A DNA stretch of 64,000 nt, from NCBI GenBank assembly GCA_000092065.1, contig CP000584.1; one strand, 5' to 3'. Below the pieces are notes generated by a model. It searched no databases and was not told where the DNA came from. It saw nothing but the letters and a program-made list of their open reading frames with translations. A program made the translations under genes and the position numbers. Source of the DNA: Ostreococcus lucimarinus. Taxonomy: Eukaryota. Positions 8,398 through 56,348 of this stretch are shown here, one piece after another; the stretch's first letter is position 1; every line of letters begins with the position of its first letter.

Positions 8398-8453
8398 TTT
8401 TCAACGTACAATAGTCGATAGTTACAGCTGCTGCTACCTAAACGCCGACCGAC

Positions 8454-27680: not shown

Positions 27681-28020
27681 GTGCGCGACGCGAACGCGCG
27701 AGCGCCCGGAACGACGCGACGACGACCGCGCGAACGACGACCGCAAAACGGGGCGACGGGCGATGGCGCGGTAGAATATTCCCAGCGCGCGACCGTCGCG
27801 GAGGGGGGGGGAGGGCGCGCGTCGCGCGCGTCGCGCGCTCTAAAGAGAGACAAGAATGCGCGCGAAGGATGCGCGCGAGGACGCCGCGAATGGGGACGGT
27901 TCGCGCGCGATGGTGGGCGTCGAGCGCGCGAAGACGGCGAACGGAGGGCGGCGAGACGCGCGAACGACTCGAGGGCGTTGACTGACGGATTCACGCGATG
28001 CACGCGCGCGGGAAGCGTAG
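27681..28020 (+). other. spliceosomal intron (340 bp) of the SPX gene
   Basis: GTGCGC donor. TTGACTGACGG branch site 33 nt before the AG acceptor. Confidence 0.5.
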
Positions 28021-28752
28021 TTTTTGGATTATAAACTCTTGAAACAGGTGTTAAAGACACTTCCGGAGAATAAGGGCGATGTGAAGCCCGCGACGGCGGG
28101 GGAGGTTCACGCGGGGGAGCGGGCATTCGTGCAGGCGCTGTCCAACGAGTTGAAGAAGTTTAACGAGTTCTTCATGAACAGAGAGGAGGAAATCGTCATG
28201 AAGGAGGGTCATTTGCAGCAGTTATTCGATCAGAACGAAGAGCGCATCGCGAGCGCGTTGAGCGCGGGGGTGTACGACGACGCGTGTTTGGCGGGAGACA
28301 CGGGCATTTGCCAGAAATTTGCCAACTTTCACGGAGAGCTCGTGTTGTTGGAGCACTGGACCAATTTAAACTACGCGGCTTTGGTGAAAATTTTGAAGAA
28401 GCACGATAAGCGATCGAGCTTGGCGCTGCGTTCTCCTTTCCTAGTCAACGTCCTGCAGCAGCCTTTCTACAGCACGGAGGTGCTCACGGCGATGATCGGT
28501 CGCGCCGAGGAGCGATTCCGCGCCATCGAGCACAGGATTCGAGAATTCTTGGGCGAGCACGTCCCGCGCGCTGAGCTCGGGACATCGCCGCAGGTGCAAC
28601 TGAGGGTATCATCGGACGGAAGCGAGATTAGCGACGACGACGACGACGCCTATTCCATCGAGCACACCAAAGCCGCTCTGAACTGCTGGCAAGGTTTGGA
28701 CAAGAGCGAGGCTTTGCAAAACCCGCTCGGCACGCCTCACGACGTTCAGTGA
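28021..28752 (+). CDS. SPX-domain protein, exon 2
   Basis: The track ORF 28024..28752 starts at a TTG, not an ATG. Joined in phase 0 after acceptor TAG| at 28020 it reads ...REQ|FLDYKLLKQVLK (SPX YIDYKxLKK box). Further SPX boxes: LKKFNEFFMNREEE and LNYAALVKILKKHDK. Confidence 0.7.
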   Translation, partial: FLDYKLLKQVLKTLPENKGDVKPATAGEVHAGERAFVQALSNELKKFNEFFMNREEEIVMKEGHLQQLFDQNEERIASALSAGVYDDACLAGDTGICQKFANFHGELVLLEHWTNLNYAALVKILKKHDKRSSLALRSPFLVNVLQQPFYSTEVLTAMIGRAEERFRAIEHRIREFLGEHVPRAELGTSPQVQLRVSSDGSEISDDDDDAYSIEHTKAALNCWQGLDKSEALQNPLGTPHDVQ

Positions 28753-29051
28753 AAACTTACGCACTAGTTTCTCGCACTCCCACCGCGCGTCGTGACATCT
28801 CGCGCGTGAATGACGCATATTACCCTAGCTCAGCCACACGTCTGGCTGACCACCATTCTTTCCTTGTTGTAAGCTTTTTTTGTTAACTTGGCCTCGAACC
28901 GTCTTGTCTCGCGCGCGCGCATCACGAGCCATTCATCCGCGCGTCGTCGGACCGATCGATCGGCGCCGAAGCGAAGGGACGCCACGCACTCACCTCCAGA
29001 GTCGAGACCGCGCGCGCGCGACATCGACGCGCGCTCGATACGACGGCGCAA

Positions 29052-31682
29052 ATGCGACTCCTCGACGGGTCGCCCTCGGCCCAATACGTCGTTTCACGCG
29101 AGCTCGTCGTTATGCTCGACGCGCCGCGCGCGGGCGTGCCTCGGCGCGTGCGCGAGCGATTCGAAAGTGCGAGCGAGACACATCCATCATCCAACGACGA
29201 ACGACGAGCGGTGTCGAACGAGCGCGACGTTGAGGTAGGCTGCGAGTCAAGATACGAACAGCCTTTTCTGACGACGCGACTCCATGAAACTGACGTGACT
29301 AACGACGTGACTGACGACGTGACTGACGACGCCTCGTCGCGTGAGCTGCAGATCGCTCGAGCATTTCTCGACGCACGGTTGAACGGTGAGCACGAATACG
29401 AAGGCTTTGAAGCGCTACTGTGCGACGAATCCGTGATCTCTCTGACGACGCGACTTCTCGCGCGCGTCGAAGAGCGCGGCGAAGCCAAATTTCCAGCGAA
29501 AATGGTTCTGAGCGCGTACATGATTTGCTACCACGCCGATGTGGTCCTCGGTGGTTCGAACGCGAAGGAGGTACCGTGCGAAGAAACGTCGCTCATTGAT
29601 TCATCCAAGGCGTTGGTTAACGCGTTCGACGCGCTCGCACTCACGATGTCGCGCTCGGGCACGTTCACAGCCACCATCACGAACGCGTTCGAGCGCGCTT
29701 GGCACACGTGGACTGCAGATTTCAAAATTTGGAAATCGAAAGACGCGTTTAGTTTGACCCAAGAGCTCATACGAATCGGTGTTGCGATGGAGTCTTCGAT
29801 GATTCGTGTGTGCGGCGCTCGCGGCGCGCTCGATTCCACAGTCGATCTCGGTGAAGAACGCAACGCGATACGCTCCGCACAATCGCACGATCGCGCGCTT
29901 CTAAGAGAGAAAGTCTTCACGCTTTCGGGTAAAAGCGCAGTCGACGAGTTCGATGCGATGATTACAAGAGTTCGAGCCGCGGGCTTAAGCGACGAAGAGT
30001 CAGCGAGGGCAAAGGATACTCGCACGGATCGGCTCGACGAACGTCGGCGTAAACGGGAAGCCACGAGCGCTCAAATCGCCGCTGCGATCGAAAAGGACAA
30101 AGAACGCGCTCGTCAGCAGATGGCTGGTGAAGAAAACGTTGTTTCGAACTTTGTCGAAATGCAAAAGGATCAGATTTTACACGAATTAATGCTGGACCCC
30201 GAGTGGAAGCTCAGAGCGCCACCAAAGTCACCCGTTGAGGACGATCCCGTACGCGAGCAGGTCGTACAAATCATGAAGAAGGCGTTCTGGGACATGGTGT
30301 ACGAATCACTTGTTCATGATACGATCGACACATCTATCGTTCGCGCTCGAATTTTCGAATGGAAAGACGCCATCATCGACGACACTTTGATTTTGGATCG
30401 CCAGACGACGGAGAGCTTGGAACTGATCCAAAATTCACTCAGCCTCATCGACGTCAACTATCTTGAAGCGAGCATCTTGCGCATGGAAAGCACACCTACA
30501 GACACATCAGAAGCTTTGCGAACCTCGCTCGATCATGGTTACACGGCTCTCAATGCGCTCGCGAATGGTTCCGTGAAGGACGATCTTAGCGCTGCGTTTG
30601 ACAATCTGACGCGAGAACTCGAGACGGCGACGAACGCGGACAAATTCACTTTATCTCGAGCGATTGCTGATGCTTTGGCGTTCTTGTTTGATTTTCGCGA
30701 GCGTATACACCAATCGATGAGCCTTGAAGCAGCCAACGAGGCGATTGATGCACTCCGCGAGACGCTCGCGGTGATGCCAGATGGCATCGAGTACGCGACA
30801 ACGCGCTTCTTGCATCGATTTGATGTGAAAGTCGGGGAGACCGAACTCGCACTTGCGTTTCCTCGCACGTGTGCTTGGCTTGAAAGCGTCGTCGAAGAGC
30901 TTCCGACGCTCGATGCGACATTTGCACCTCTTCTCGATTCTCTCAATGTCGACCGCTGGCGAGGCGTGCGTCTGAGGAGCGGTTTCGAGACTCGAGCCGA
31001 GGGCGCGCAAAAGACTTCTTCGGAAGTAATCAGTTCAACTTTACATCCGACCCGGGTCATGTCTGTGAATGGTGTTTGTCGTGTCGCCTTTGCACGATTG
31101 GTTACCAATCCCAACGCCATGATTCAAGACTTTATCCCGGAAACGCTTGAAAACGACGTGCAACGCATCGATTACTTTTGCCGTGAGTTTCAGAACATTC
31201 AAACGCTTGCCGCTTGTTTGATGCTCTCCACGCAACTCTGTCGCTTAGAGGTTTTCGTGGATGTGGACGCGCTCATCGATCGAGTCGCGGTTCTGCTCTC
31301 TTCGGAACGAGACCTACCGGCGATGTCTCGCGTCGCCGAGGTCCTCTCCGCGACGCTCCCGACGTCCGACGGCGCCCAAACCATCACCAACATGCTTCGC
31401 AAGCTCACGGGTTCCGACGATTGCGCCAATCCGATGTCTGTCGCCATCATCAAGGCCATACGATCCGCGCTCACGATTCGTCTCCTTCACGGCTTCGAAG
31501 GCGAAGCCGTTGATAGGGCGTGCGACGCCCGGCTCGCCGCAGTCTTCGCGTCGCGTCTCCGTCCTCGCGTCGACGCCATCGCTCGCGACGCCGCGCGAGT
31601 GATCAATCTACACGCCACAGTGCGCGCGCCCGTGGTTTCGGCCTTAGTGAACGACTTGCTCGCCAGAGATGATGAAATTTAA
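29052..31682 (+). CDS. T-complex protein 11 (TCP11/Sok1) family protein
   Basis: ILHELMLDPEWKLRAPP...VVQIMKKAFWDMVYESL matches the TCP11 family core from memory. In-frame 12-bp tandem repeat (TDVTNDVTDDVTDD) at 29283-29335. Confidence 0.55.
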   Translation: MRLLDGSPSAQYVVSRELVVMLDAPRAGVPRRVRERFESASETHPSSNDERRAVSNERDVEVGCESRYEQPFLTTRLHETDVTNDVTDDVTDDASSRELQIARAFLDARLNGEHEYEGFEALLCDESVISLTTRLLARVEERGEAKFPAKMVLSAYMICYHADVVLGGSNAKEVPCEETSLIDSSKALVNAFDALALTMSRSGTFTATITNAFERAWHTWTADFKIWKSKDAFSLTQELIRIGVAMESSMIRVCGARGALDSTVDLGEERNAIRSAQSHDRALLREKVFTLSGKSAVDEFDAMITRVRAAGLSDEESARAKDTRTDRLDERRRKREATSAQIAAAIEKDKERARQQMAGEENVVSNFVEMQKDQILHELMLDPEWKLRAPPKSPVEDDPVREQVVQIMKKAFWDMVYESLVHDTIDTSIVRARIFEWKDAIIDDTLILDRQTTESLELIQNSLSLIDVNYLEASILRMESTPTDTSEALRTSLDHGYTALNALANGSVKDDLSAAFDNLTRELETATNADKFTLSRAIADALAFLFDFRERIHQSMSLEAANEAIDALRETLAVMPDGIEYATTRFLHRFDVKVGETELALAFPRTCAWLESVVEELPTLDATFAPLLDSLNVDRWRGVRLRSGFETRAEGAQKTSSEVISSTLHPTRVMSVNGVCRVAFARLVTNPNAMIQDFIPETLENDVQRIDYFCREFQNIQTLAACLMLSTQLCRLEVFVDVDALIDRVAVLLSSERDLPAMSRVAEVLSATLPTSDGAQTITNMLRKLTGSDDCANPMSVAIIKAIRSALTIRLLHGFEGEAVDRACDARLAAVFASRLRPRVDAIARDAARVINLHATVRAPVVSALVNDLLARDDEI

Positions 31683-31729
31683 CGCTCTTCTTCGCGAATC
31701 AGAGGCACCCGGCGCTTGAAGAATCTTCA

Positions 31730-34700
31730 ATGAAGATGAACCGCTTTTCCGTTGCCCACGCGTCAGAATTCTGCATTCAGCGACTCGCGCGGCGAGCACG
31801 CCGCGCTCGAAACGCCGCCAAGTTGTCGCAGGAGAACAACGATGTGTGCGCGCGCGACGAATCCACCGTCGCGCGCGACGAAGCGCGCCAAGGCCTGCTG
31901 TCGCTCGCGCGCGTCGCGAGTCGACGCGTCGATCGCTCGTTACGACGCATGCGCGCGTCAATCAGTCGTAGACGCTCCAACAAAGGAACGGATGGCGAAG
32001 CGTGCTTAGTTTTACACGGATGGCGAAGCAACGCCGACGTGAGCGCGCTGCATGCGCGAAGGTTGCGGCTTTTGAAGCGATTTAGAAAGGCGTCGTGCGT
32101 GAATGGCTCGGAGGAGGCGCCGCACGCGGCGGACGAGACGACGTCTGAATTAATCGATGGACCGTGGTTCTCCTGGGTCGACGACGCGAGTGATGATACG
32201 TTTGAAAATTTGGAAAGCGAGCGAGCGACGGCGTTAATGACGGCGGCGCGATCGGTGGCAAAGTTTGCCATCGAACACGGGCCGTTCAAGTGCGCGGTGG
32301 GATTTTCGCAAGGCGGCGCAATGATCACGTTGTTGTCCAACCCGCAGGTCTTAAGCATGCTGGGGATCGAAGGGGGCTATTTGTGGGACAGTGCGGTGAT
32401 TTGTTGCGGCGCGTCATCTTCATTGCTCGATCTCGCGGCGACGAAGTGGGGTATCGACGTGCGCTCGTCGGCGTCGCCGATGCCGTCGTTGCACGTGTTC
32501 GGTTTTCAAGACAAATTCAAACCACAAGGTGAAGTGCTCATGAATACGTTCCGTGCGTACGACAGCGAGGACCAATTGATCAGACACGCTCTGTATTTAG
32601 ACTGCGGTCACACGTTGCCGGCGTCGCTCGAGACGGACACTGGTTTTCACGCCGAATTCGACGCCTGGCTCGAGGCGGCGACCGAGGCGGCTCCCCGTCG
32701 TTACAGGTCAAACGAGTTCGATGAAGATGTTTTGTTCGACGACATCAAGTCGCTAGAGTATAAGTCGCTCAAGTTTAGTAATCAGCCCACCATCGAGCGC
32801 GCTGAGGCTGATATTGAGAGAGCAGAAGCGGAGGGCGCACGCGCCGCCCAAGCGACGACATTTGCTTCAGCCAGAACTCTCGCCCGAAACATCGATGTAA
32901 GCACCGCAACTGCGCCGAGCGGGAATGATCTCACGTTCAACACGCGCTGTGCGAGTTTGGTTCAGTGTAATGTGTCGCTAAAGTCAAGCAGAGTGAATAT
33001 TCTTGACTTTCTAGCGAGGGCGCCTCGAGCGTCTCCGCTTCTTCGAAGCTTGGACGGGGCAACATTGACGTACGGGCAAGCGATCGACTTCATAACAAAA
33101 GGGGACGGTGATTTACGTAAACTTGGGGCAGATTCGTCATCTGTTTTTGCGTATAATGTCCCTCCAGGCCCGGTCGGTGCGCTAGCTTTTCTCGCCGTCG
33201 CGTCGCAGTGCACCGCCGTCCCTTTGGACCCCGGCATCGCCGAGGAAGACGCCTACGAAGCCCTGACGTCGTGTCGAGTGTCAATGCTTGCGTTATTTCG
33301 AGGAACCGACACTGAAGCAATTGAAACGGCAGCTTCTCGAGCTCATATACCGATTAAATGGTTCGTGATGACGGAAGCTGATACTAAACTTGCCGGTTTG
33401 TACGCGCCGGAATCGTCTCAATCGTCAACGAGTGACGTCGCGCCGCTCGTACAATCGAGTGAAACGATCGGTCTTTTGCTTCGAACTTCTGGGACGACAT
33501 CCAAGTCAAAAGTTGTTCCGTTGGTTATCGGCGCGTTGACTTCAAACGGCGCTACGCTGGCGGCTTCTCTTGAACTCAAAGCTTCAGACGTTTGCATCAA
33601 CGCCATGCCTCTTTTTCACATCGGTGGCCTTTCGTGTTCCATCTTGGCGACGATCGCGGCGCACTCTTCTGTCATCTGCTGTCGTAAGTTTGACGCTCAA
33701 TCGTTTTATGACACCATTACGACGTCGCATGAAGTCAAACCGACGTGGTACTCAGCAATACCGACGATTCATTTGACAGTACTGCAATACGGTCAAGCTG
33801 TGGCTCGTGGCGCAAAGCCATCGCATGCTCTTCGTTTCATACGCTCTGGCGCGGCGGCGCTCAGCCATGCCGACGCAGAAAAGTTGCAACGATTTTGGGA
33901 CGTGCCGATAATACCGACGTATAGTATGAGTGAACAAATGCCGATCACTGGTAAAGGTGTCCACGTTCCGCTCGCCGAGCGTGCGGATACCGTGGGCCAG
34001 CCTCTCTGTTGTTCGTTTGCGCTCGTCGGTGATGGTCATTGCAGACTCACGGCACCTTTTGGACAGCAAGGTGAACTCGTCATCAGCGGTGATAACGTGA
34101 TGACGGCGTATCAAGATGCGGAAGAAGCTAACAATAAGACTTACTTCTACGTTGCCGATAAGCGTTACCTTCGCACTGGCGACATCGCAAAGATGGACCA
34201 CGATGGGTTTGTGTACTTGACTGGTCGTAGTAAGGAACTTATCAAGCGCGGGGGTGAGCAAGTGAGCCCATTAAAAGTCGAGGCTGTGCTCGTGCAGCAT
34301 CCATACGTGCGTGTTGCGGTAGTCTTCAGCGTTCCTTCGGCGCTTTGGGGAGAAGAAGTGGGCGCCGCGATCGTATTGACCGACGACTTTGATGGGCACG
34401 AAGACTCGGCGCTCTCTTCAATCAAGTCTTTCATGGGAACATCGAAAGAACTATCTCGATTTGAAATTCCTGTACACTGGAAATTTGTCGCTGACGAAGA
34501 TTTACCCAAAACATCGACGAAAAAGTATAAGCGTGCGGGTTTGGCCGAGATTTTAAACGTCGCGAAGAAAGTCGACGCGTGCACTTTGCGGCACTCTAAA
34601 AAGGTGACGACCCCGTCGCATGGTCTTGCAGGCTTGCGCTATTGTATGGCTGTAGGTGTGATGTTTAACCACATAGGTGCCATTTGGCAAGGCGAGGACG

Positions 34701-36391
34701 AACGTGATCCTTTGACGTATGGTCCAGCGTGGATGTCTGCCAAGGCGACGACGTTTTACTTTCCAGCGACAACTTTCTTTGTGCTGGGTGGCTTCACGCT
34801 CAGCGCCGCACTGAACGGCAAGGAAATCACAAAAGGAACATGGGGATCGTTCTATAATTCAAGGTTTCAAACACTCTTTCCTCTGTACTTGCTGTCTTTG
34901 TTTCTCGGTCTGATCAACGTCCTCGTGGTGTGTCGCCCGGAAACTTTTAGTAGCGAATTTAGCTGGCAACCACATAACGCAACGCTCACGCTCGACTCTG
35001 GGGCGTGGGCGCAATGCCAGACCGGTCCAGTGGAGATGCCCTACGGCGCTTGGCTCTTCATGACCCTCATCGTTTTCTCTTTCGGGTTGCAAACTTGGTT
35101 CCCGCTGTGGCTTCTCAGCTCGTGGTTCATGTACTACACGTGGTTCAACGGCGTTTACTATTTCATTATTCTCGTGTTTCCTTTCATGCACAACGCGCTC
35201 GCTCGCGTCAAAGGCGAATTCAAAGCCGTACTGAGATGGTTCATCGTTTACTGTGTCGGTACTCTTATCACCGCCGGGCTTTTGGGATTGTACTACGCCT
35301 TACCGGCGTGGGAAGAGCACGACGATGTCGCCAAAGTGAAGAGCTGGAAAGAAAATGTGCAGAACATCTACGCACTCAGCACAATGATGTTTCCGCCGTA
35401 TTGGGTGCCATGTGTCGGTACGGGTATGGCCGCATACTTTTGGTACGACGCCGTACGGCCAGTAGAGTCGCACAAGCGCGCGTTGTACGGCCACTGCGCC
35501 GATGTGCTCACGCTCGCATTTTTCGCCTTCCATCTCGCCCATTTCCTTGACATTGATTGGCCTTATCCGACCAACGTCACGGGCAAGATGTGGGAAGTTG
35601 TACCCGAAGAGCATCATCGCTGGGATACAGGCATCAATCGCTATGTATGGAGCGTCATGATCACTCGGTTGTATTCTCCGTTGATCGCCGTCTGGATCGC
35701 TCTGCTGTCGATACCGAAGGGCAGCCGAACGACTCGCCTTCTTGAATCAAACTTACTAAGCAAAGTGCTCGCCCCGACGAGTTATGGTTGCTTCTTGTTC
35801 CACCAGATCATTGGACAGTGGTATTGGTGGGCGACTCGTAATGGAAATGGCATCAAGACCGCAGACGTTGGCGACAAGACGTCGTGGATGTGGTGGGCGT
35901 ATCCGAAGGAATATTACTGGTTCTCGCCGCAGCCGTTACCTGTGGCGTGGTACGAGTTCTTCTTCATCGTCGGAATGACGACGTGCTTTTCGGCGGCGGT
36001 AGACAGGTGGCTCAATACTCCACTGACGGTGCTATGGATCAAGTTTATAACCTTCTTCCGGAATATTATATGGCCGAATTCGGCGAAGAGCGCGGAGACT
36101 TCGGGTAGCAGCGAGGAGTCGTCGCCTGAAGACGCGGTGATCAAAGCAGTCGCCGCGGTCACGGGCGTCGACGAACGAGTGTCTCTCGACGACTCCTTTG
36201 ATGAGATCGGTCTCGTTTCTGTCGGTCTGCCAGTGCTCGTGGGTATAATCAACGCCGGCGAACAATTCGCCGTCATCTCGGCTCAAGAAATAGCGACGTG
36301 CGCGAACCTTCGTGACGTCGTCAGAATAATCGCTTCCAAGCGTGAATCGGCTCGATCGAGTGTAGGGTTTGGAACTAGAAGCTCTCTGTAA
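31730..36391 (+). CDS. multidomain FSH1-type serine hydrolase + adenylation (AMP-binding) domain + family-3 membrane acyltransferase + phosphopantetheine carrier domain
   Basis: Hydrolase: LVLHGW..., GFSQGGA (GxSxG), ...DCGHTLP. A-domain: LLRTSGTTSKSKVVPL (A3), YLRTGD (A8), LTGRSKELIKRGGEQVSPLKVE, LPKTSTKKYKR (A10 Lys). AT3: GLRYCMAVGVMFNH.., FFVLGGFTLS, FYNSRFQTLFPLY, about 10 TM helices. Carrier: VSLDDSFDEIGLVSVG (Ser attachment site). TGTAA overlaps the TAA stop (36387-36391). Start may be ATG 31949. Confidence 0.75.
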   Translation: MKMNRFSVAHASEFCIQRLARRARRARNAAKLSQENNDVCARDESTVARDEARQGLLSLARVASRRVDRSLRRMRASISRRRSNKGTDGEACLVLHGWRSNADVSALHARRLRLLKRFRKASCVNGSEEAPHAADETTSELIDGPWFSWVDDASDDTFENLESERATALMTAARSVAKFAIEHGPFKCAVGFSQGGAMITLLSNPQVLSMLGIEGGYLWDSAVICCGASSSLLDLAATKWGIDVRSSASPMPSLHVFGFQDKFKPQGEVLMNTFRAYDSEDQLIRHALYLDCGHTLPASLETDTGFHAEFDAWLEAATEAAPRRYRSNEFDEDVLFDDIKSLEYKSLKFSNQPTIERAEADIERAEAEGARAAQATTFASARTLARNIDVSTATAPSGNDLTFNTRCASLVQCNVSLKSSRVNILDFLARAPRASPLLRSLDGATLTYGQAIDFITKGDGDLRKLGADSSSVFAYNVPPGPVGALAFLAVASQCTAVPLDPGIAEEDAYEALTSCRVSMLALFRGTDTEAIETAASRAHIPIKWFVMTEADTKLAGLYAPESSQSSTSDVAPLVQSSETIGLLLRTSGTTSKSKVVPLVIGALTSNGATLAASLELKASDVCINAMPLFHIGGLSCSILATIAAHSSVICCRKFDAQSFYDTITTSHEVKPTWYSAIPTIHLTVLQYGQAVARGAKPSHALRFIRSGAAALSHADAEKLQRFWDVPIIPTYSMSEQMPITGKGVHVPLAERADTVGQPLCCSFALVGDGHCRLTAPFGQQGELVISGDNVMTAYQDAEEANNKTYFYVADKRYLRTGDIAKMDHDGFVYLTGRSKELIKRGGEQVSPLKVEAVLVQHPYVRVAVVFSVPSALWGEEVGAAIVLTDDFDGHEDSALSSIKSFMGTSKELSRFEIPVHWKFVADEDLPKTSTKKYKRAGLAEILNVAKKVDACTLRHSKKVTTPSHGLAGLRYCMAVGVMFNHIGAIWQGEDERDPLTYGPAWMSAKATTFYFPATTFFVLGGFTLSAALNGKEITKGTWGSFYNSRFQTLFPLYLLSLFLGLINVLVVCRPETFSSEFSWQPHNATLTLDSGAWAQCQTGPVEMPYGAWLFMTLIVFSFGLQTWFPLWLLSSWFMYYTWFNGVYYFIILVFPFMHNALARVKGEFKAVLRWFIVYCVGTLITAGLLGLYYALPAWEEHDDVAKVKSWKENVQNIYALSTMMFPPYWVPCVGTGMAAYFWYDAVRPVESHKRALYGHCADVLTLAFFAFHLAHFLDIDWPYPTNVTGKMWEVVPEEHHRWDTGINRYVWSVMITRLYSPLIAVWIALLSIPKGSRTTRLLESNLLSKVLAPTSYGCFLFHQIIGQWYWWATRNGNGIKTADVGDKTSWMWWAYPKEYYWFSPQPLPVAWYEFFFIVGMTTCFSAAVDRWLNTPLTVLWIKFITFFRNIIWPNSAKSAETSGSSEESSPEDAVIKAVAAVTGVDERVSLDDSFDEIGLVSVGLPVLVGIINAGEQFAVISAQEIATCANLRDVVRIIASKRESARSSVGFGTRSSL

Positions 36392-36763
36392 TAAGTTATC
36401 ACACGCTAAGCATCATCGTCACTCAAACGACGACGAGTTGCGTATCCTCTCCTTGTGCTCGTGCGCCTCGCGTCCGAGGAAAACCTTTGCTCGACTGATT
36501 CAGTCACGTCACAACCCAGACGCCATGAACTCGATCAAGCGTGCGATCGCGCGCGTGCTGGCGTCAGACGAGTTACACTACGCCATCATCCCCGTCATCA
36601 TCATCGTCGGTATGAACACGACGCCGAAACCGAGCATTTTGTCGCTCTTGACGCCGATTTAGACGAGTGTAGAGATCTAGAGATTAGCAACGAACGAACG
36701 CATCGACCGCGACACGGATACGAGTGTAATGAAAACGAAGTGGTTTGTTACAAGTTGCGCGTT

Positions 36764-38398
36764 TTAGCTTCGCTCGCGCAGGCGTCGATCAAAGTCGGAG
36801 AGGTCGTAATCATCGCCGGCGCCCTCGTTGGACGTGTACACGGCGTCACCCACGACGCGCTGGGACGCAGCTGAGCTCGCGGCGGCGAGCTTGGCGGCTA
36901 AACGAGGCTCTGGACTCGCGATACGGCGAGCTGCGAGCAATCGAGAGTTATTGCGAGCATCGATTTCCCGGTTCTTGCCTTGGTTGCGGAAATAGCGCAA
37001 CAGCGGAACGACGAAGAATAATACGCCGTAGCTCAGTAAACCGGGGAGCAAGCCCGAGAAGGCGCGCGCCAACTCCACGTACTCTCGGGTGCGGTACATG
37101 ATTTGCGGGTCGTTAATCATCTGCGCCAAAATCACCACCCCCACTAAGTTCGCAACGCCGAGTAAACCCGCTTGAATCTTTTGCGACGGCTCGGCGAGCG
37201 AAAACACCCATCGCTCCTCTTGCGCCAACGCCTCACTTTCGCCTCTACTTCGCGCCGTTGTTTTTCCAGCGGTGGACTCCATGTTAGGAAATCGATAAAT
37301 GATCGATCCTGTGACGGTATTCACCTCTGGCGTGCCCTCGAAGCGGGTGAGCGCGGGCAAGACAAAGGACTCGTCTTCGTATCCCGCCGTGTCCAGAAAC
37401 GGCGCCAACTGCTCCGCCGTCACAACGCCCTTATTCTTTTGAATCAAGCGTCCAACCAACTCCCAACGCCGCTTTTCGAAATCCAAGTTCGGATCGCCGT
37501 CGCCGAAAACAAAACTGAAGACAGCCTCAAAAAAGTTCATCTCTCTGTCGCGTCTTCGCGGTCGGCGATAGTAGTACGGATCCCAATACCAAAACAAATC
37601 AAACGGCGAAATGTAAAAGCGCGGCCCAGCGAAGCCACCACCGCGCCGATCTGAACGATCGTCACTACTCTTGGCGCTCATGAGGGCGAAGATGGCGGTG
37701 TAGACAATCATCACGCTCGCCACGAGCGACGTTCCAAACGCCACGCGAAAAACGTACGAAGCTAAGCTTTTCGCCCCGCTCACGATCGGTTCGATCTTCA
37801 TCTTGAACGATTTCGAGCTCAAAATCCCTCGTGTCGACCTGGGAAACACGTATGTGAGATCGCCCGCGCTGGATACTTCCAAAGTCGCTCCTGTGTCCGC
37901 CGCCAGCGCGTTGAGCGCCTTTTGCGTCTCGAACACGCTCGCCCCCGAAATCGAGCTCACGTCCCCCACAGTGGCGCGATACTGCGCCTTCTCGATCGCT
38001 TTAAGTGTTTTTTCGCGCAATTCAGCGTTCAAATCATCGCTCTCCACGCGTCCTCCCGGGGCGACGGCGAGCTTGTCGTCCTCCGCGAGCGCGCTCTCGC
38101 GAGGCAGGTCCAACTCGACTCGATCGTCGTAGTCCCATCCTCCTCGCGCGCGCGTCGTCACCGCTCCATCGCGCGCGCGCGCGAAGCGCGTCTTTCGCGC
38201 GACGCGCCCGTCCTCAGCGCGCGTCGCCGCGTCGCTCGCCCGCGCGCGCGACCTCGTCGGCGTCATCTTGGACGACGCGCGAACGACGACGACGACGACG
38301 CGCGGCGACGACGACGACGCGCGCGCTCGAACGGCGCCGACCGCGAGCGGCGGCATCGCGCGCGAGTTGTGCGTCGTCGGCACCGCGGTGGCGCGCAT
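36764..38398 (-). CDS. conserved plastid/cyanobacterial-type membrane protein (At5g03900-like), with presequence
   Basis: ORF 36764..38497. N-terminal S/A/R-rich presequence, soluble domain (ATVGDVSSISGASVFETQKALNAL), FGDGDPN motif, and two TM regions flanking a domain containing VTAEQLAPFLD. Start is uncertain (38497, 38398 or 38356) because it overlaps the neighbour's start. Confidence 0.5.
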   Translation of the reverse strand: MRATAVPTTHNSRAMPPLAVGAVRARASSSSPRVVVVVVRASSKMTPTRSRARASDAATRAEDGRVARKTRFARARDGAVTTRARGGWDYDDRVELDLPRESALAEDDKLAVAPGGRVESDDLNAELREKTLKAIEKAQYRATVGDVSSISGASVFETQKALNALAADTGATLEVSSAGDLTYVFPRSTRGILSSKSFKMKIEPIVSGAKSLASYVFRVAFGTSLVASVMIVYTAIFALMSAKSSDDRSDRRGGGFAGPRFYISPFDLFWYWDPYYYRRPRRRDREMNFFEAVFSFVFGDGDPNLDFEKRRWELVGRLIQKNKGVVTAEQLAPFLDTAGYEDESFVLPALTRFEGTPEVNTVTGSIIYRFPNMESTAGKTTARSRGESEALAQEERWVFSLAEPSQKIQAGLLGVANLVGVVILAQMINDPQIMYRTREYVELARAFSGLLPGLLSYGVLFFVVPLLRYFRNQGKNREIDARNNSRLLAARRIASPEPRLAAKLAAASSAASQRVVGDAVYTSNEGAGDDYDLSDFDRRLRERS

Positions 38399-48498: not shown

Positions 48499-48686
48499 CG
48501 ATCATCGACGTTCACCCTCGTCGTCATCGCCGTCGGTCGCGCCGGTCCCACGAACGCATCCTCGCCGTCGCTCGTCGCTTCGTCCGCCGTCTGCCGCGCC
48601 GATCCAGCGCGCGCCGGTCCCACGAAGCCACCGTCGTCGCCGTCGCCGTCGTCGCTGCTTCCGTACTCTCCCACGAACGCGTCCAT
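47922..48686 (-). CDS. HCNGP-like (SAP30-binding-protein family) protein with Asp/Gly-rich tract
   Basis: Real start MDAFVGEYGSSDDGDGDD at ATG 48686. The upstream 295 codons of ORF 47922..49571 are S/P/R junk. Paired FVGPAR motifs, a (DGDDGDD)n tract, and a C-terminal VNDLLIVARRRGVTPSALMFTSSTFRNPEFME...KFAFDES resembling the HCNGP box. Confidence 0.45.
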
Positions 48687-49243
48687 CGTCGCGATGGGAC
48701 GGCGCGACGCGTCGGCGGCGTTCGTCCGAGTGTCGCGGCGCGAACGCGCGACGCGCGAACAAAGGGTCGCGGATATTTTGGTTTTTCGAAAATTCGAATG
48801 GATGCGATCAAATCTACGTATACGGTGTGTAAAAAACGCCATCACGAGTGGATAGGGTTCTGCATCCAAATCTTTAAATCGCGCGGCGCAGCTGTCGACG
48901 TTTTGGCGCGCAAGATGACGGATGAGTTTCGACGCCGCGCCGCACACCTCGCCGCTCGACGAGGTTATAAATCTAAATCTCGAGCGAAACGAACTGCATC
49001 GATTCGATCGTGTTCCGCGCGAGCATCGCGTCGTCATCCGCGCTTGAGGGAGCGCGCACGGACAACGCGCGCGCGAACGGCGTCGAACGAATTCGCTTGT
49101 TCCCCCGATCTCGACACATCGCCGATCGCGCGCATCGGCGACGTCGATTTCGAGCGCGTCGCGGGAGTGTTCGGTGACGAACGCGCGCGTGGACGTGAGA
49201 ACGAACGTCGTTCGTTCACCGCGAGCGGCGCTCGCGCGAAGGC

Positions 49244-49584
49244 ATGGCTGGGAAACGCGCGACGCCGGTAAAAGATGCGTCGAAAAACAAACCGAAAACG
49301 ACGCCGGTGAAGAAGTCGACGATGAAGGCGCCGCGGGACGGGGCGTCGGCGCCGAATTCGCCGGCGGGGCGTGGAACGCCGCGACGAGCGACGGCGAATA
49401 AGGCAACAGAAAGAATGAAGGAAATGGCTGTGAAGACGGAGGACATGGATGAGGACTACGCGTTCGACGGGGATGACGATTACGCCGCGGCGCCGAGCGC
49501 GCCGGCGAGCGGGCGCACGACGCCGAAGAAGTACAGAGCGCGCGTCGTGGGAGGATCAGCACCGCCGACACCGATGAGCAAGAG
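49244..49584 (+). CDS. DNMT5: DNMT5, exon 1 (lysine-rich, S/TPKK-type H1-like N-terminus)
   Basis: MAGKRATPVKDASKNKPKTTPVKK...SPAGRGTPRR...TTPKKYRAR... ends AAG AG|GTACGC (donor at 49585). Listed as an unrelated 128-aa ORF in the track. Confidence 0.6.
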
Positions 49585-49831
49585 GTACGCTAGTAGTGGT
49601 TCTTTGATTTTATCTCCGTTGCGCGCGTGAACAGGACGGCGCGGATGAGAGAAAAGGGGAATCGCGATCAGGGCGCCCGCGGGTGCCCGCGACGCGTTTC
49701 CCGCCCGAACTGCGTCGCCGACGGCAAACGCGCGCCTCACGCGACGTTGACGCGCTTCGGGCGCGTTGAAATCGCGCGTATACATGGATGACTGACGAAT
49801 ATTTTTTCACCTCTTGTTTCATTTTTAACAG
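49585..49831 (+). other. spliceosomal intron (247 bp) of DNMT5
   Basis: GTACGC donor. ACTGAC branch site 34 nt upstream of the AG. Strong polypyrimidine tract. Confidence 0.6.
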
Positions 49832-52800
49832 ATCTCCGGGTGGTTCTCCGCGCAAGAGCGGAGACAGCGACAGCGGCGCGAGCGGCAACCCGAGAACGCA
49901 ACTCGCGGAGCATTTGCCCGTGATTGCGGATATCGGTGGTATGTTTGCCGATCTTGTTAGTCGTGTTCCGGGCATGGAGAACTTCTTGACGGCGATGAAG
50001 CGCCCGTTACGCGTCGCGACGATGTGCTCTGGCACGGAGTCGCCGCTTCTCGCACTCGACAAGATTGGGGACGCCACGGAAAAACTCTATGGTACGCGTC
50101 TCGCCGTCGACCACGTGTTCTCGTGCGAGATCGAACCGTTCAAGCAAGCATACATCGAGCGTAACTTCGCGCCGCCAATCCTCTTTCGCGATATTCGCGA
50201 ATTAGGCGGCGACCAGGCGACGACGGCTTACGGCGCGAAAATCAACGTGCCGCACGACGTCGACATGCTCGTCGCGGGTACTTCTTGTGTCGATTACTCC
50301 AACTTGAACAACGAGCGTAAGGGTCTCGAGGCACAAGGGGAGTCTGGTCAAACGTTCCGCGGGATGATGAACTGGATCAGAAAGAGCCAACCACCGATCA
50401 TCATCTTGGAGAACGTGTGCAACGCGCCGTGGGATCAAGTGCAGAAGAAGTTTGAAGACGAGGGCTACCACGCGCGTTTCATGCGCGTGGACACGAAGCG
50501 GTTCTACATTCCGCACACGCGTACGCGTGTGTACTTGTTTGCGTGCAAAGCGAGCGATGCATCGCTCGTCGAAGCGTGGAAGGGTATGGTAAAGTCGCTC
50601 GAGCGACCGGCGAGCGCGACGCTCGAAGCATTCCTCTTCGACGCCGACGATCCTCGTGTACACGAAGGTCGACGTATGTTGGCTCGCCCGGGTGAAGATT
50701 CGACGCGCGCAAACACTGACTGGGGACGGTGCGAATCTCGTCATCAACGCGCACGCTTGGAGGAAGGTTTGGGTCAGCGTCGCCCGTTCACGCATTGGGA
50801 TGGCGGTTGCACGCTCCCCGACTTTGCATGGAACGACTGGGGTAAGGCTCAGACCGACCGCGTGCTTGACTTGATGGACATCGACTATTTACGCCTTGCG
50901 CAACTTGATATTGATTCCATGCACAAGACTTTGGTTTGGAACCTCTCTCAAAACGTCGATCGTACCACCGGCTCGGTCGCTCCGGGAATTTGCCCGTGCC
51001 TGACGCCATCGATGGTGCCGTTCGTCACCAACCGTGGTGGTCCTCTCGTCGGCATTGAAGCTCTGAGCTTACAAGGGATTCCGGTCGATGACTTGTTGTT
51101 GACCCGTGAAAGCGAGAACCAAATGAGCGATTTAGCCGGCAACGCGATGACGACGACCGTCGTCGGCGCTTGCATGCTCGCCGCGATGACTCTCATGACG
51201 GACAACCTCGCCGCAAAGAAGCACAAGACGGCTCGACGCGCTTTACTGCTTGACGATGATTCCAAGGAGAGCTCGCAAACTATGCAAGGCTCGCTGACAG
51301 TCGTTCAAGCTGCTGCGGCTAAGAAGACGGAGGTCGTCGGGCAAGACAAGTTGGTGAAGCGTCCCCTCGATCTCGGCATGAAGCCAGTCGGGATGAAGGA
51401 GCTCCTCAGCAAGGCGAACAGATCTGCGCGTTTGTGCGTGTGCGAAGGTGAAACTGGCACCACTGATGCGGATTCTCTCGTCATTTGCCGTGACTGCTCT
51501 CACACGTGCTGTATCAAGTGCTGCGGGCGACCCGAACACAACTACGAGAAGCACGTCGTCGATCGCATCTTGCCGGAGGATTTCAAAGAAGACTTGAAAA
51601 ACTCTCTGCCGATGCACATGAAGTTGGATGTGAGCTCGGCCAAGTTTACGAAACCGAAAGAACTTCTTGGTAAAGTGTGGGACGACTGGATGGACGCGAT
51701 CAAGGCTATTGGGGAAGCTGATTTCTTGTTCCGAGGCATGAAGCGAACCAACGTCTGGCGCGTGTATTACTCGTGCGCTTCTGAGGACAAAGTACGCTTG
51801 GAATTGCGCATCGCTCCTAACGCGGCCGAGTGGTTGATCTTCGTTGATCCTTCCATCAAGAAGGGCAAACCGGAGGAGTTCCATGAACGCCCGTTGATGC
51901 GTATGCTCTTGGACAAGTCGGCGAAGAGCGTCTTGGACGGCACGTGGGAGTTCTTCTCGCCAGAGTACGCCGCGGTGCCGGTTATTCTTGAAGGTAAGGG
52001 CGAACTCGAAGATTCTTGGCAGATCAAGCTCGGTATGTTGACCAACAGCAAGCTGAACGGTGACGTGAATTGGCCGGAGGAACGTTGGACTCAGTACGAA
52101 GTTAAGCTGAAAGATCCGAAGAACGCGACAGAGTTTGATCGCAGCATCACCGGCACCTACCAGCTTTATGACAAATGCGACGCCGCTCAAAGTTCATTGC
52201 ACAAGCGCATTGGTGGCCCGCAAAATGGTCGCGAAATGTACTTCTTCATGGACCCCAGACGTAACCAAAAGGGTGAATTTGACTACTTCGTGTTTGCGGA
52301 TAACCATCGTCGTTTGATGTATGGTGAAGACCGCATGGAGACGGCGCACTTGGATTTCCGAAACCTTGGACAGCCTCCTTCGGGAGATCGTTTCCGTCCG
52401 AGTGATAAGAAGGTTGTCGAACACATGGCTCACACGTTTGGAAAATGGACTGCTCTGCCGCAAAAGGTTGCCCTCATGCCCGCCGTCGTCCAAAACGCCG
52501 TCGTGTTGACGCCGCCGGTGAACGCCGTCCCGACTCAAGGCGAGGACTCGTGCTCGAAGGCGGTTGCCATCATGCGTTGCTCCGTTCCTTTGTCTAGCGT
52601 TGATGTCGATTTGTGGCCCGAGAATGGATACACGACTGTGCGTCTTGACAAGAGTCATGCTACCTTCCAACGCCTCGAGTGGTTCACGTCTCGCATGGAA
52701 CTTCCGAAGGTTGTGGAGAAGTGGAACCAGCTCAGCGACGATCACGCGTTGTCGTGCGATAAATTCGCTTGCTCGCGATGTGCGCCGACGCCGCCGACTC

Positions 52801-55800
52801 TTTTGTGGAGCCGACAAGTCGGTTCGCAAAAGATTCAAGCCCGTGAAGATCCGTTGCAGGCATCCAAATATGAACAAGCGCTCAAGTGTCGACCCGAGCC
52901 ATTCGTCGTGCAATGGACTCGCGAGAAGACGACGGGCAACTTGATGATTGCTGGTAACCCAGCTACGCTCGTTCATCGTGCTCTTGCGCTTGTCGCTCCG
53001 TCTGGTGTTCGAGGCATCGAATCAAAGGCGCCGCATATGTCGTGGAGAATCGTTCGACACGACGACCGCCCGATGGACAACTTTGGGGAGTTTGAATTGA
53101 AGAGCAACCGTCACGACAAGCAAGTTGCGCAACCGCCGAACTGGAGCAAGAAGTACCCACTTCGCCCAGAACAACTGCGCTCGCTTGGGTGGATGGTTCA
53201 GCAAGAGATCAACGAAACGCCGTTCGTGGAAGAGGAAATTTGTGAAAAACTTCTTCCGGCTTTGGGCCTTCGCATGGATGGCAAGGCGGAAGTCTCAAAG
53301 GTGATTCGCGGCGGCATCGTGGCCGATCAAGTTGGTTACGGGAAAACGGCCATCTCCATCGGGGTCATCTTGGCGAACCAGCTCAAGTTCCCGACGCCCA
53401 AGCAAGCTAAAGTTGATGCTCCGGTCAAAGCGATTCCGACCAAGGCAACGCTTGTCATCGCGCCGTCTCAGTTGCTCCGCCAATGGCCGAGAGAGGTTGA
53501 GAAGTTCAGCGCGAGAGGTTCTTTGAACACGGTCGTTCTCAAGACAATGTCTGATCTCAACTCTTTGACGGCGCGAGAGGTCATGGAAGCAGATGTTGTC
53601 ATCGTCGCTACGACTCTCTTCAGATCTTCGCTGTACTTTGAGCGTCTCGCGCAACTCGCCGGTCGACCTTCTCTTCCGGATCCGAAATCTTCGAGCCAAG
53701 CGCGCCACTTCACGAGCGTGTACAAGGACACTGTGGCGAGCCTCGAAGACCAAGTCATGCGATTGACCGATAAGAAACTTGGTGTCGCTGAGGTTGCCAA
53801 ACACGTTCGTTGTGGCACTTCTACGCTCAGCGACGTCGCCGTCACAGCGGCGCCCAAACGTCTCAAGGGCGCAAAGCTCATCGAAATGACCGAAAAGGCT
53901 GGCGGCGAAGGTTACGAGTTCGTCGAGGCCTTGCACAAGGAACGCCAGCAGGCTTTGGACAAGGAGAATGTTCAAAAACCGATCAATGTTGAGCCGACAA
54001 GTGCTCCGGTCACGCCGTCCAAGCCTAAGAAGACGCCGACGAAGAAGACGCCGACGAAGAAGACGCCGACGAAGAAGACGCCGACGAAGAAGACGCCGAC
54101 GAAGAAGACGCCGACGAAGAAGACGCCGATGAAGTCACCGATCCGCGCGTCTGCGCGAAACACGCCGCGTAAGTCATACGCTGAAGATGATAGCATGGAA
54201 ACTGATGATGAGATCTCTGATTGGGATGACGATGAATCGCTGGATGGCAGTGAAAGCGAGGAATTCGTCAAGGAAAAGTCGACGCCGAAGCGTAAGCGCA
54301 TCGTTAAGCAACGAAGCATGGAAATTGACGCCGATGGCAATAAAGATCATTGGGGTCTCGAAAGCGCTCAAGCTGAGTACGACTGGCGTGACATCAAGTC
54401 TGTTCCTGTCGAGCTATTCCACTGGCGCCGCGTCATCGTCGATGAGTTTACATACTTGAAGCCGTCCGATAAGGCCGTCGTCATGGGACTTCAATCTGAA
54501 TCCCGTTGGTGCTTGTCTGGTACTCCGCCGGTGGGCGACTTTGCCGACATCAAGGGTACCGCTGCTTTACTCGGTATCAACCTCGGCAGCGACGAAGTTC
54601 CGCGCTATAACAAGTCGGAAATCACGAAGGTGGAGACGTTCCAATTCTTTAAGGAGAAGCCGACACAACAATGGCACAAGCGAAGATGGGAGGTGGCGCA
54701 AGGCTTTTTGAACCGTTACATGCGACAAAACATTGCTGAAATCGATGAGATCAAGTTCAAAGAAGATGTGTGTGATGTTCAACTTCGACCAGCTGAGCGT
54801 GCTATCTACCTTGAGCTCGATCACTACTTGCAATCCATGGACATGAAGGCGAAGAAGAAGAAGCGAGGCGCGTCTGAGAGTGACCGCGACGCCCGTCTCG
54901 CTGCCGTCCTCGGCAACTCTTCTTCCGCAGAAGAAGCACTTCTGAAGCGCGTGGCGCACTTCGAATTGGATGACGAAGCGGGAACTGCGCTTCGAACTTG
55001 CCAAGACATCGTGAACGTTCGCAAGACTCAACAAGAAGATTGCTTGAAGGAATTCGGTGAAGCCATTCTCAAGGCGCGCGCCATGTTGTCGCAAATGTCT
55101 CAGATGCCTGACTTTACTCCGGAAGACAATCCGTTCATCCGATGGGAGAACGGCGTTCAAGGCGAAGGTATCGGTGACCCCACAGCGAGCGAACTTCTCA
55201 AGGGCGTTCTCAAGGAGCAAACCGAAGCCAAGGCTGCTAAGACCGCGCACCTCTTGCAAACGCGCCCGCCCGTCGGATCGACCATCGCGGTGTTTTCTGT
55301 TGAAGAGCAAGAATGGATTGAAGGTGAAGTTCGCGGTTATAGTGGTCAGTGGAAGCAAAAAGCTTCCGTCTACTACGACGCCAAGACTCGTAAGGATGAA
55401 GATTTGACCAAGGTTGACTGGAAGGTGGTCAAGGCTGTTGAAGGCGAGCCGAGCTCCACGATGGACTCTGGGAAATCCGTATCCATGAAGAAGACGAAGA
55501 CGGCATCCCTCGACGATAAGCTCTGGGAGCTGCGAGAGCATACGCACGGTCTCCGCAAGTTGCAAAAAGAGCTTGTCGGTCGAGTGCGCTCTTTGCGCTT
55601 CTTCCAGTCTGTTCGTGACTTGCAACAAGCCAAGATGGACGATTCGGTCAAGTGCGAAGCGTGCTCGAAGAAGTTTGCCAAGTCAAAGTCTGGCGTCCTA
55701 TCTACGTGCGGCCATATTGGTTGCGTCACCTGCCTCAAGGTCAACGCCGAGAACCAAGAGTGTGGCGTGAAGAACTGCGATTGCGCTACTCGTGACACGT

Positions 55801-56348
55801 CCGTCGTGACCGCGGTCTCTCTTGGCACCGAGGCCAGCGCGGACTCCAAGTCTATCAAGACTGATGGTGGCGTCGGCGTGCACGGTTCAAAGATCATCGA
55901 CATCGTCGCTCACATCAAGTCCATCCCGGATGACGAACGAATCCTGGTCTTCGTGCAATTTCCTGACTTGATGCAACAAGTGAGCTCCGCGCTCAACGAA
56001 GCTGGTATCAAAACGCTCAAGCTCAAGGGCTCGGTGCATCAACAAACGGGCGCGCTCGACGAGTTCCAAAAAGAAAACTTGAAGAAGGATGATGCTCGCG
56101 TTCTCTTGCTTTTGAGCCGAGACGAAAGTGCGTCTGGAGCCAACTTGACGACGGCTAACCACGCCATCTTCGTTCACCCCTTGCTCACGAACACTGCTCA
56201 GGAGTACATCGCCAGCGAGACGCAAGCCATCGGTCGCATCCGCCGCTACGGGCAACAGCGCGAAGTGCGCATCTGGCGCTTCATCGCTCGCGATTCCGTC
56301 GACTCTGAAATCTTGAGTCAGCGCGCCGCTGGCTTGATGCAGAACTAA
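49832..56348 (+). CDS. DNMT5: DNMT5: C5 cytosine methyltransferase + RING + SNF2-family ATPase, exon 2
   Basis: Acceptor TTTTTTCACCTCTTGTTTCATTTTTAACAG| with a GACTGACGAAT branch site. The joined frame continues ...PTPMSK|RSPGGSPRKSG.... MTase motifs: ATMCSGTESP (I), GTSCVDYSNLN (IV), ILENV (VI). SNF2: GYGKTAISIG, DEFT box, QAIGRIRRYGQ. Two RING-like Cys clusters. (KTPTK)7 repeat. Confidence 0.85.
54028..54132 (+). repeat. in-frame 15-bp tandem repeat (AAGAAGACGCCGACG)x7 encoding (KTPTK)n inside DNMT5
   Basis: Direct read of seven perfect units. They lie in the linker between the methyltransferase and SNF2 parts. Confidence 0.85.

Follow-up and report, generated by a model that had tools for sequence, protein, structure and literature searches.

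DNMT5 enzymes are tied to linker-specific CG methylation in picoalgae and are a model for ATP-dependent high-fidelity maintenance methylation. The DNMT5 gene considered here is on the plus strand of a 64,000 nucleotide (nt) stretch of the Ostreococcus lucimarinus genome (contig CP000584.1, assembly GCA_000092065.1), which was analysed as a whole and is referred to as the window, with positions counted from its first letter. Two plus strand open reading frames (ORFs) follow one another at this locus, 49244..49630 (128 aa, beginning with ATG) and 49788..56348 (2186 aa), the second of which encodes the DNMT5 catalytic domains. From sequence comparison it is very probable that the small ORF is not a gene of its own but supplies, with its first 341 nt, exon 1 of DNMT5, spliced to position 49832.

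The DNMT5 of Cryptococcus neoformans (PDB 7R76, 7R77, 7R78 and 7T02, deposited as 'DNA repair protein Rad8') has the same domain order as the O. lucimarinus protein, a C5-methyltransferase (MTase) followed by a SNF2 ATPase. Homology between the two begins at LAEHLPVIADIGGMF, which is residue 282 in C. neoformans, and both have about 100–280 residues N-terminal of this element. In Cryptococcus this N-terminal region reportedly contains a chromodomain that reads H3K9 methylation, as described in 2020 by Dumesic and by Catania. The O. lucimarinus N-terminus is, in contrast, a disordered tail of 113–135 residues that has S/T-P-K/R sites and no detectable domain. DNMT1 has an N-terminal regulatory region with a PCNA-interacting protein (PIP) box, a nuclear localisation signal and phosphosites. 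DNMT5s vary in what precedes the MTase, and DNMT5b enzymes have LBR, MBD, HAND or Tudor domains in this position (PMC9998398). The O. lucimarinus tail would resemble those of DNMT1 and DNMT5b in being a variable module for targeting or regulation in front of a conserved catalytic core, but differs from them in having neither a PIP box nor a folded reader domain.

Structure of the DNMT5 gene

Exon 1 (49244..49584) contains 113 codons and 2 bases, with a GC content at third codon positions of 0.74. Its ATG at 49244 is preceded by more than 300 nt without another ATG and has an in-frame stop codon upstream at 49196, and the MAGK start is common to most Ostreococcus-like sequences. The exon ends after 49584 at the donor AAGAG/GTACGC (exon boundaries are marked by a slash) and is followed by a phase 2 GT-AG intron of 247 nt (49585..49831, donor GTACGC, acceptor CAG). 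Near the end of the intron are the branch motif GATGACTGAC (49787–49796, with the core ACTGAC at 49791–49796), a pyrimidine tract (about 49800–49826) and, 247 nt past the donor, the acceptor AACAG/A in the context GGATGACTGACGAATATTTTTTCACCTCTTGTTTCATTTTTAACAG/ATCTCC. Exon 2 begins at 49832 and extends to 56348, including the stop codon. Its first base is the third codon position in the frame of the large ORF, AG/A rebuilds an Arg codon, and the spliced product is 2285 aa with no internal stops. The donor, the acceptor and the in-frame join are as the first-pass annotation had described them; the small ORF does not, however, end at the donor as stated there, but reads 14 codons into the intron.

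The features of a spliceosomal intron are all present, with a GT donor, a CTRAC branch 18–45 nt before a YAG, a pyrimidine tract and retention of the reading frame. When these were combined into one composite pattern (AG/GTRMGY, then ACTRAC, 10–45 nt of at least 65% pyrimidine and YAG, spanning 150–400 nt), there was one match on both strands of the 64 kb window, at 49585–49831, compared to a mean of 0.13 in shuffled sequence.

Conservation of the intron in the Mamiellales

Metagenome contigs represent three further Ostreococcus lineages (L001/L009, L007/L008 and L011/L012) and two other Mamiellales, L003 and L004. L003 is Micromonas pusilla-like and its DNMT5 agrees with every residue of XP_003063363 shown in the alignment supplement of PMC10540734. 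L004 is a Mamiellales contig from outside Ostreococcus, with 61% GC. In all four Ostreococcus lineages the exon 1 homologue (MAGK...TP[MT]SKR) ends AAGAG/GT[AG][CA]G[TC] and is followed by an ACTRAC branch and a YAG/A acceptor 221–247 nt downstream, in the same phase and with a split Arg codon. The donors are GTACGC, GTACGT, GTGCGT and GTGAGT, and the introns are 247, 232, 221 and 221 nt. Homologous exons are also found upstream of DNMT5 in L003 and L004, each with a phase 2 intron at the equivalent place that splits an AG/G Arg codon (GCGAG/GTGCGC ... CGCAG/G in L003 and CCCAG/GTGAGA ... CGCAG/G in L004). Alignment with orthologues, which the first-pass annotation had proposed as a check on splicing, gives the same intron position and phase in six lineages, the four Ostreococcus, L003 and L004.

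Conservation ends at the donor and picks up again at the acceptor. Between the four Ostreococcus sequences, DNA identity averages 75% per pair for exon 1 and 73% for the start of exon 2, compared to 40% for the intron. Invariant ungapped columns make up 60% and 55% of the two exon regions, respectively, and 14% of the intron, where they are concentrated around the donor, branch motif and acceptor. The ratio of nonsynonymous to synonymous substitution (dN/dS) for exon 1 is 0.19–0.31, at dS 0.43–0.92, in the six pairs of the four Ostreococcus lineages, which indicates that exon 1 is under purifying selection. In the lucimarinus-like population (L013 and L026 compared with the window) the intron is 247, 254 and 255 nt, due to indels of 8 nt and 1 nt. 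These indels are confined to the intron, and exon 1 has one single nucleotide polymorphism among 12 contigs.

Past the donor, the small ORF encodes read-through peptides that vary by lineage in sequence and length (YASSGS, CVMVVF, YVTIVL, CVYRFR, CVFLSR, YVYWHM), and in L011 its stop codon overlaps the donor. This bears on the alternative that there are two independent genes here, one for a small unspliced basic protein (XP_001417392, 102–128 aa) and one for a DNMT5 that starts from MTDEYFF (49788) or MFADLV (49941). Two genes would match the deposited annotation, and prokaryote-style gene callers give both ORFs separately on dozens of metagenome contigs. Against this, the conservation of the small ORF stops exactly at the GT donor and its read-through tail differs in every lineage.

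The start codon of DNMT5

Homology to the C. neoformans DNMT5 begins at LAEHLPVIADIGGMF, 24 residues past the acceptor, and the first conserved methionine comes only after this point, which means that translation has to include this stretch. The beginning of exon 2 contains the element LAEHLPxIxDIxxMF, which is kept as far as the DNMT5 of C. neoformans. In the window, the sole in-frame ATG upstream of LAEHLPVIADIGGMF in the exon 2 ORF is the one at 49788..49790, which is the start of the RefSeq DNMT5 model (MTDEYFF). This ATG is within the branch motif GATGACTGAC and in all likelihood does not serve as a start codon. The residues encoded between 49788 and the acceptor come from translation of the pyrimidine tract and are not conserved, being MTDEYFFTSCFIFN in the window, MTDDCSILFPRWI in L009 and MTNIPRSPICFPD in L011. 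An ORF start of MTD or MTN recurs in L009 and L011, though not in L007, because the motif is kept for splicing. L007, L003 and L004 have no in-frame ATG between the preceding stop codon and the conserved element, therefore in these lineages only splicing from an upstream exon supplies a start codon.

These observations also count against two independent genes. A DNMT5 gene starting at MTDEYFF would have an ATG that is part of the branch motif GATGACTRAC, followed by an unconserved peptide; a start at MFADLV would remove LAEHLPVIADIGG, which is kept as far as Cryptococcus; and L007, L003 and L004 lack any in-frame ATG able to include the conserved element. The first-pass annotation had taken orthologues starting at the MTDEYFF methionine as a sign against splicing. 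RefSeq models do start there or further downstream, but such a start is unsuitable as a test because the ATG sits in the conserved branch motif GATGACTRAC and the peptide following it is unconserved.

A further alternative is that there are two isoforms, the spliced long form and a short form generated either from an intronic promoter or by intron retention with re-initiation at 49788 or 49941. The in-frame ATG at 49788 in the lucimarinus lineage, with its counterpart at the matching place in L009 and L011, is in favour of this, while the lack of that ATG in L007, L003 and L004 is not.

Methylation at the locus

The Logan contig L042, from run SRR847306, was assembled from bisulfite reads and is a one-strand consensus of a single run. 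It matches positions 48636–54048 of the window, with all differences being C to T. There are 166 C in the 5413 nt of L042 and every one of them is in a CpG context (166/166). The methylation state is in this case readable directly from an assembled contig.

The retained C are in clusters every 170–210 bp, from 49332 to 53906, and this is the linker-periodic pattern described for O. lucimarinus. None of the 121 CpGs in 48636–49243 are retained. Exon 1, in comparison, keeps 16 of its 59 CpGs, the intron 13 of 38 and the initial 500 nt of exon 2 29 of 74. Within the intron, the cluster at 49674–49722 is fully methylated (13/13 CpGs), as are the first three linkers of exon 2. In prasinophytes, 5-methylcytosine is periodic in gene bodies, is essentially absent beside transcription start sites and first appears around the third linker (PMC12633428). 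There is one promoter-like unmethylated region at this locus, upstream of exon 1, and there is none before 49788; its interpretation as a promoter draws in part on the generalisation in that publication. The region is the divergent intergenic sequence 48687..49243, shared between DNMT5 exon 1 and a minus strand HCNGP-like gene with a probable start codon at 48686. In L003, L004, L008 and L011, too, an HCNGP gene adjoins the locus upstream, in synteny.

Both alternatives are affected by this pattern. For two independent genes an unmethylated promoter-like gap before 49788 is missing, as methylation covers the linker in the intron as well as the next three, in exon 2. With regard to two isoforms, the methylated linker in the intron and the three that follow are unlike the regions adjacent to transcription start sites in prasinophytes, and it is quite unlikely that a short form is made alongside the spliced one.

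Public annotation and database searches

The exon has been annotated as a separate gene in RefSeq, as the first-pass annotation had noted for the ORF calls. XP_001417392.1 (A4RWU2; O. lucimarinus CCE9901, 'predicted protein', 102 aa) is identical to the window ORF from Met27 to the end of its read-through tail YASSGSLILSPLRA. For DNMT5 itself, the alignment supplement of PMC10540734 numbers the V of VFSCEIEPF as residue 110 in XP_001417393, and this V is also at position 110 of the ORF from 49788. The RefSeq DNMT5 model therefore starts at MTDEYFF and RefSeq has two genes here. XP_001417393 is the DNMT5 model used in the published phylogeny (PMC10540734). In the same supplement VFSCEIEPF starts at about residue 55 of M. 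pusilla XP_003063363 and at residue 82 of Bathycoccus prasinos XP_007511811; in the spliced O. lucimarinus product it starts at residue 209. Based on this residue numbering, from which the RefSeq N-termini were deduced, the N-terminal exon is missing from all three RefSeq DNMT5 models (O. lucimarinus, M. pusilla and Bathycoccus).

A scan with the 3' end of exon 1 found 29 metagenome contigs of the Joint Genome Institute (JGI), all 29 of which are genomic with the intron. Searches of two protein libraries returned no DNMT5 model longer than about 1000 aa, and neither the exact spliced product nor the exact unspliced products are in the collection.

Several results can be set against the spliced gene. 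The searches brought up no spliced transcript. Nor did the two protein libraries yield a protein that spans the junction: a 161 aa query across it, a phmmer search with exon 1 against 1.84 billion representatives and the members of the P0001 and P0144 clusters gave unspliced ORF calls only. The exon-exon junction had no matches in the JGI metagenome contigs, which are a DNA collection and hence uninformative on this point. Matching peptide strings were absent from three O. tauri proteome or phosphoproteome supplements, which is uninformative as well, since these are from a different species and may write modified peptides differently. L003 needs a frame correction of 1 nt within exon 1. In this contig, at 8440–8520, the acidic part of exon 1 and the subsequent SPKKKRKPPVKSPRAK part are in different frames. 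The shift is either a 1 nt assembly error or a real difference, and the donor and phase fit only the second frame.

On balance, conservation, start codon logic and the methylation pattern, all read from DNA, support the two-exon structure well and make it highly probable. The first-pass proposal that the small ORF is a spliced first exon of DNMT5 is borne out by the conserved intron position and phase, the purifying selection, the missing downstream starts and the single unmethylated promoter-like region. It is very likely that the deposited two-gene annotation is wrong, and that there are two independent genes is extremely improbable.

The 90% identity cluster of P0001 (P0150–P0163), whose representative is a DNMT5 fragment, also contains an unrelated protein named 'syntaxin 7' and the clustering appears to be chimeric. 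Two RGRP AT-hook-like motifs and the sequence KKTPTKKTPTK occur in the 'syntaxin 7'-named protein, which is not encoded in the window, so that DNMT5 is not the only protein of these algae with KKTPT repeats.

The N-terminal tail

In the spliced product residues 1–58 are basic (net charge +12), residues 59–80 are acidic and aromatic (EDMDEDYAFDGDDDY, net charge -8) and residues 81–135 are again basic (net charge +8), this last part running on into exon 2. Residues 1–135 are on the disordered side of the charge-hydropathy boundary, with 70% disorder-promoting residues. AlphaFold2 gave a mean predicted local distance difference test (pLDDT) score of 57.5 and a predicted template modelling (pTM) score of 0.17, with a single helix at 48–66. 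The 113 residues of exon 1 are thus predicted to be without a stable fold, with a helix at about 48–66 leading into the acidic patch. A Pfam scan of the first 150 spliced residues (E up to 0.1) found no domain, the sole match being a spurious one to PBP1_TM (E=0.057).

Proline-directed motifs are enriched in the tail. There are 5 [ST]P.[KR] motifs in residues 1–125, compared to 0.55 expected from composition (P=5e-5), and 3 of the strict form [ST]P[KR][KR] (TPRR, TPKK and SPRK), compared to 0.11 expected (P=1e-4). Exon 1 itself carries TPVKK, SP, TPRR and TPKK sites; the first-pass annotation had also placed SPRK there, and this is in fact encoded at the start of exon 2. Four of the five [ST]P.[KR] sites are conserved within Ostreococcus and two across the Mamiellales. 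Among the invariant positions in nine Mamiellales sequences are SP (39–40), TP[RK]R (45–48), FD (74–75) and [ST]P[KR]K (93–96). S/T-P-x-K/R is also the full consensus of cyclin-dependent kinases (CDK), and 5 such full-consensus CDK sites are clustered in the disordered segment. Stretches of K-K/R-x-K/R fit a nuclear localisation signal.

Basic-acidic-basic tails of low complexity are also found in DNMT5 homologues of many lineages, where they are contiguous with the MTase in one ORF. Within these tails, RPRRS-x3-4-(V/I)SY-x-E followed by an acidic run recurs in diverse eukaryotes (P0005, P0076, P0094, P0120, P0102, P0006 and P0086), and the RPRRS motif can be loosely aligned to TPRR, which is invariant in the Mamiellales exon. 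Homology between exon 1 and these tails ('RPRRS...VSY.E + acidic') was considered and rejected, with an hhalign probability of 0.5% and E=0.11; the likeness is one of architecture alone.

Neither a PIP box nor an AlkB homologue 2 PCNA-interacting motif (APIM) was found in exon 1 by inspection, and the exon has no Gln at all. A PIP-box-like Q..ITSFF(G) is present about 10–25 residues from the N-terminus in many non-Mamiellales DNMT5 homologues (P0019, P0021, P0025, P0034, P0038, P0041, P0047, P0053, P0054, P0058 and P0078). Its resemblance to the PCNA-binding motif of DNMT1 hints that DNMT5 may be coupled to replication in those lineages.

Exon 2 domains and the SNF2 insert

The identity of the large ORF as DNMT5 is confirmed. 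Exon 2 encodes the conserved N-terminal element, the C5-MTase, the SNF2 ATPase with a Lys/Thr/Pro-rich insert, a putative RING and helicase C. DNA_methylase (PF00145, E=2.1e-16, exon 2 residues 64–444), SNF2-rel_dom (PF00176, E=6.5e-21) and Helicase_C (PF00271, E=3.9e-6) are all above the Pfam cut-offs. The RING match is weak, zf-RING_5 at residues 1940–1982 scoring 21.4 bits (E=2.4e-4), below the 27.9 bit cut-off, with the Cys/His pattern visible. The protein has 55–98% identity to hundreds of PF00145 proteins, and in phmmer the first 556 residues of exon 2 match C. neoformans DNMT5 (PDB 7R76) with E=1.5e-176.

A 15 nt tandem repeat of 7.2 copies at 54027..54134 on the plus strand (Tandem Repeats Finder score 209, 98% matches) gives rise to (KKTPT)x7 in the insert of the SNF2 domain. 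Of the 12 [ST]P.[KR] motifs in the 2171 aa product of exon 2, 11 are within this 90 aa insert. The (KKTPT)x7 is followed by an acidic-aromatic run and then by a basic run, which is the layout of the N-terminal tail. The number of KKTPT copies varies by Ostreococcus lineage, with 7 in the window, 4 in L009, 5 in L007 and a degenerate form in L011, and L004 has an insert like it. The motif density of the SNF2 insert is the highest in a set of 93 long stop-free segments from across the window, and DNMT5 is the only one of the 93 with more than one Lys-type motif per 125-residue span.

In L004 there is an extra frame change within the methyltransferase domain at 9258–9384, between ...RELDEEQ and ATTAYGA..., probably due to a second intron that Ostreococcus does not have. 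Elsewhere in the window, 28001–38000 is a 10 kb region of 52–58% GC with flanks of 61–69% GC.

Likeness to histone H1 and proposed function

The C-terminal tails of histone H1 are Ala/Pro-rich, with hardly any acidic residues and a Lys content of roughly 40%, or about 30–40% as a broader range, and the S/T-P-K/R motifs of H1 double as CDK sites. The SPKK motif is said to go back to Suzuki in 1989 and to occur in sea-urchin sperm H1 and H2B tails. Exon 1 had been called lysine-rich and histone-H1-like in the first-pass annotation. The first of these terms is overstated, as its product is 12% K, 8% R and 11.5% D+E, with 13 acidic residues and a net charge of +10 over 113 residues. The second stands in part. 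The tail shares with H1 tails proline-directed S/T-P-K/R-K/R motifs, enriched and conserved, in a disordered basic segment, but it has less Lys, an acidic patch in its middle (59–80) and no winged helix or other linker-histone domain. It is therefore H1-like in motif content, as far as sequence can tell, and not in composition or architecture. The (KKTPT)x7 insert of the SNF2 domain is compositionally much nearer to H1 than exon 1 is. The N-terminal tail is best described as disordered and basic-acidic-basic, with proline-directed sites of the S/TPKK or CDK type that are conserved.

The tail could be a variable targeting or regulatory module N-terminal of the MTase, as in other DNMT5 enzymes. 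Its basic S/TPKK-type arms would probably provide nuclear import and a weak, sequence-independent contact with DNA or chromatin, and proline-directed (CDK-type) phosphorylation would probably tune this contact. The SNF2 insert would provide a second basic-acidic-basic module. DNA tethering, import and phospho-regulation are inseparable by sequence and mutually compatible. Some points tell against a targeting or regulatory role: it is deduced from composition and motifs only, the AlphaFold2 alignment was a shallow one of 7 sequences without the two non-Ostreococcus rows, and the hhalign comparison with other DNMT5 tails leaves architecture alone in common. The role is accordingly tentative, a reasonable possibility that falls somewhat short of being probable.

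A more specific proposal is that the tail is an H1-like linker-DNA binder that steers DNMT5 and thereby causes or sharpens linker-specific methylation. The enriched and conserved S/TPKK-type motifs are consistent with this, as are the second, far more Lys-rich cluster (KKTPT)x7 in the SNF2 insert and the linker-periodic methylation of the locus itself. Of the linker-methylating species, M. pusilla alone has the winged-helix domain of canonical H1 (PMC5728721), and linker DNA might be free for such a tail where this domain is missing. On the other hand, the Lys content of exon 1 is far from that of H1 tails, the acidic patch carries a charge of -8, and no linker-histone domain was detected. The linker specificity is already accounted for by nucleosomes blocking methyltransferases when remodelling is uncoupled (Lyons and Zilberman, PMC5728721). 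M. pusilla keeps a winged-helix H1 and yet has the same DNMT5 tail, which therefore counts against a simple replacement of H1, and basic-acidic-basic tails are common in the DNMT5 homologues of many lineages. A linker-binding tail that steers the enzyme is thus unlikely. It is similarly doubtful that the two S/TPKK-acidic-aromatic-basic modules, in the N-terminal exon and in the (KKTPT)n insert, would together form a phosphorylation-gated tether to linker DNA or histones. Were this the case, the tether would hold DNMT5 on linkers in algae with reduced or absent canonical H1 and would help to write the nucleosome-positioning, linker-periodic methylation.

Conclusions

The outcome is a well-supported annotation correction of a well-known enzyme, together with a hypothesis, rather than a new mechanism or a new kind of system. 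The RefSeq DNMT5 models of O. lucimarinus, M. pusilla and Bathycoccus, which were used in a published phylogeny, are short of their first 100–150 residues. The corrected model changes what is to be cloned, expressed or deleted and removes a spurious orphan gene. The position that is taken by the chromodomain in Cryptococcus would be occupied in these algae by a conserved, probably phospho-regulated charged tail.

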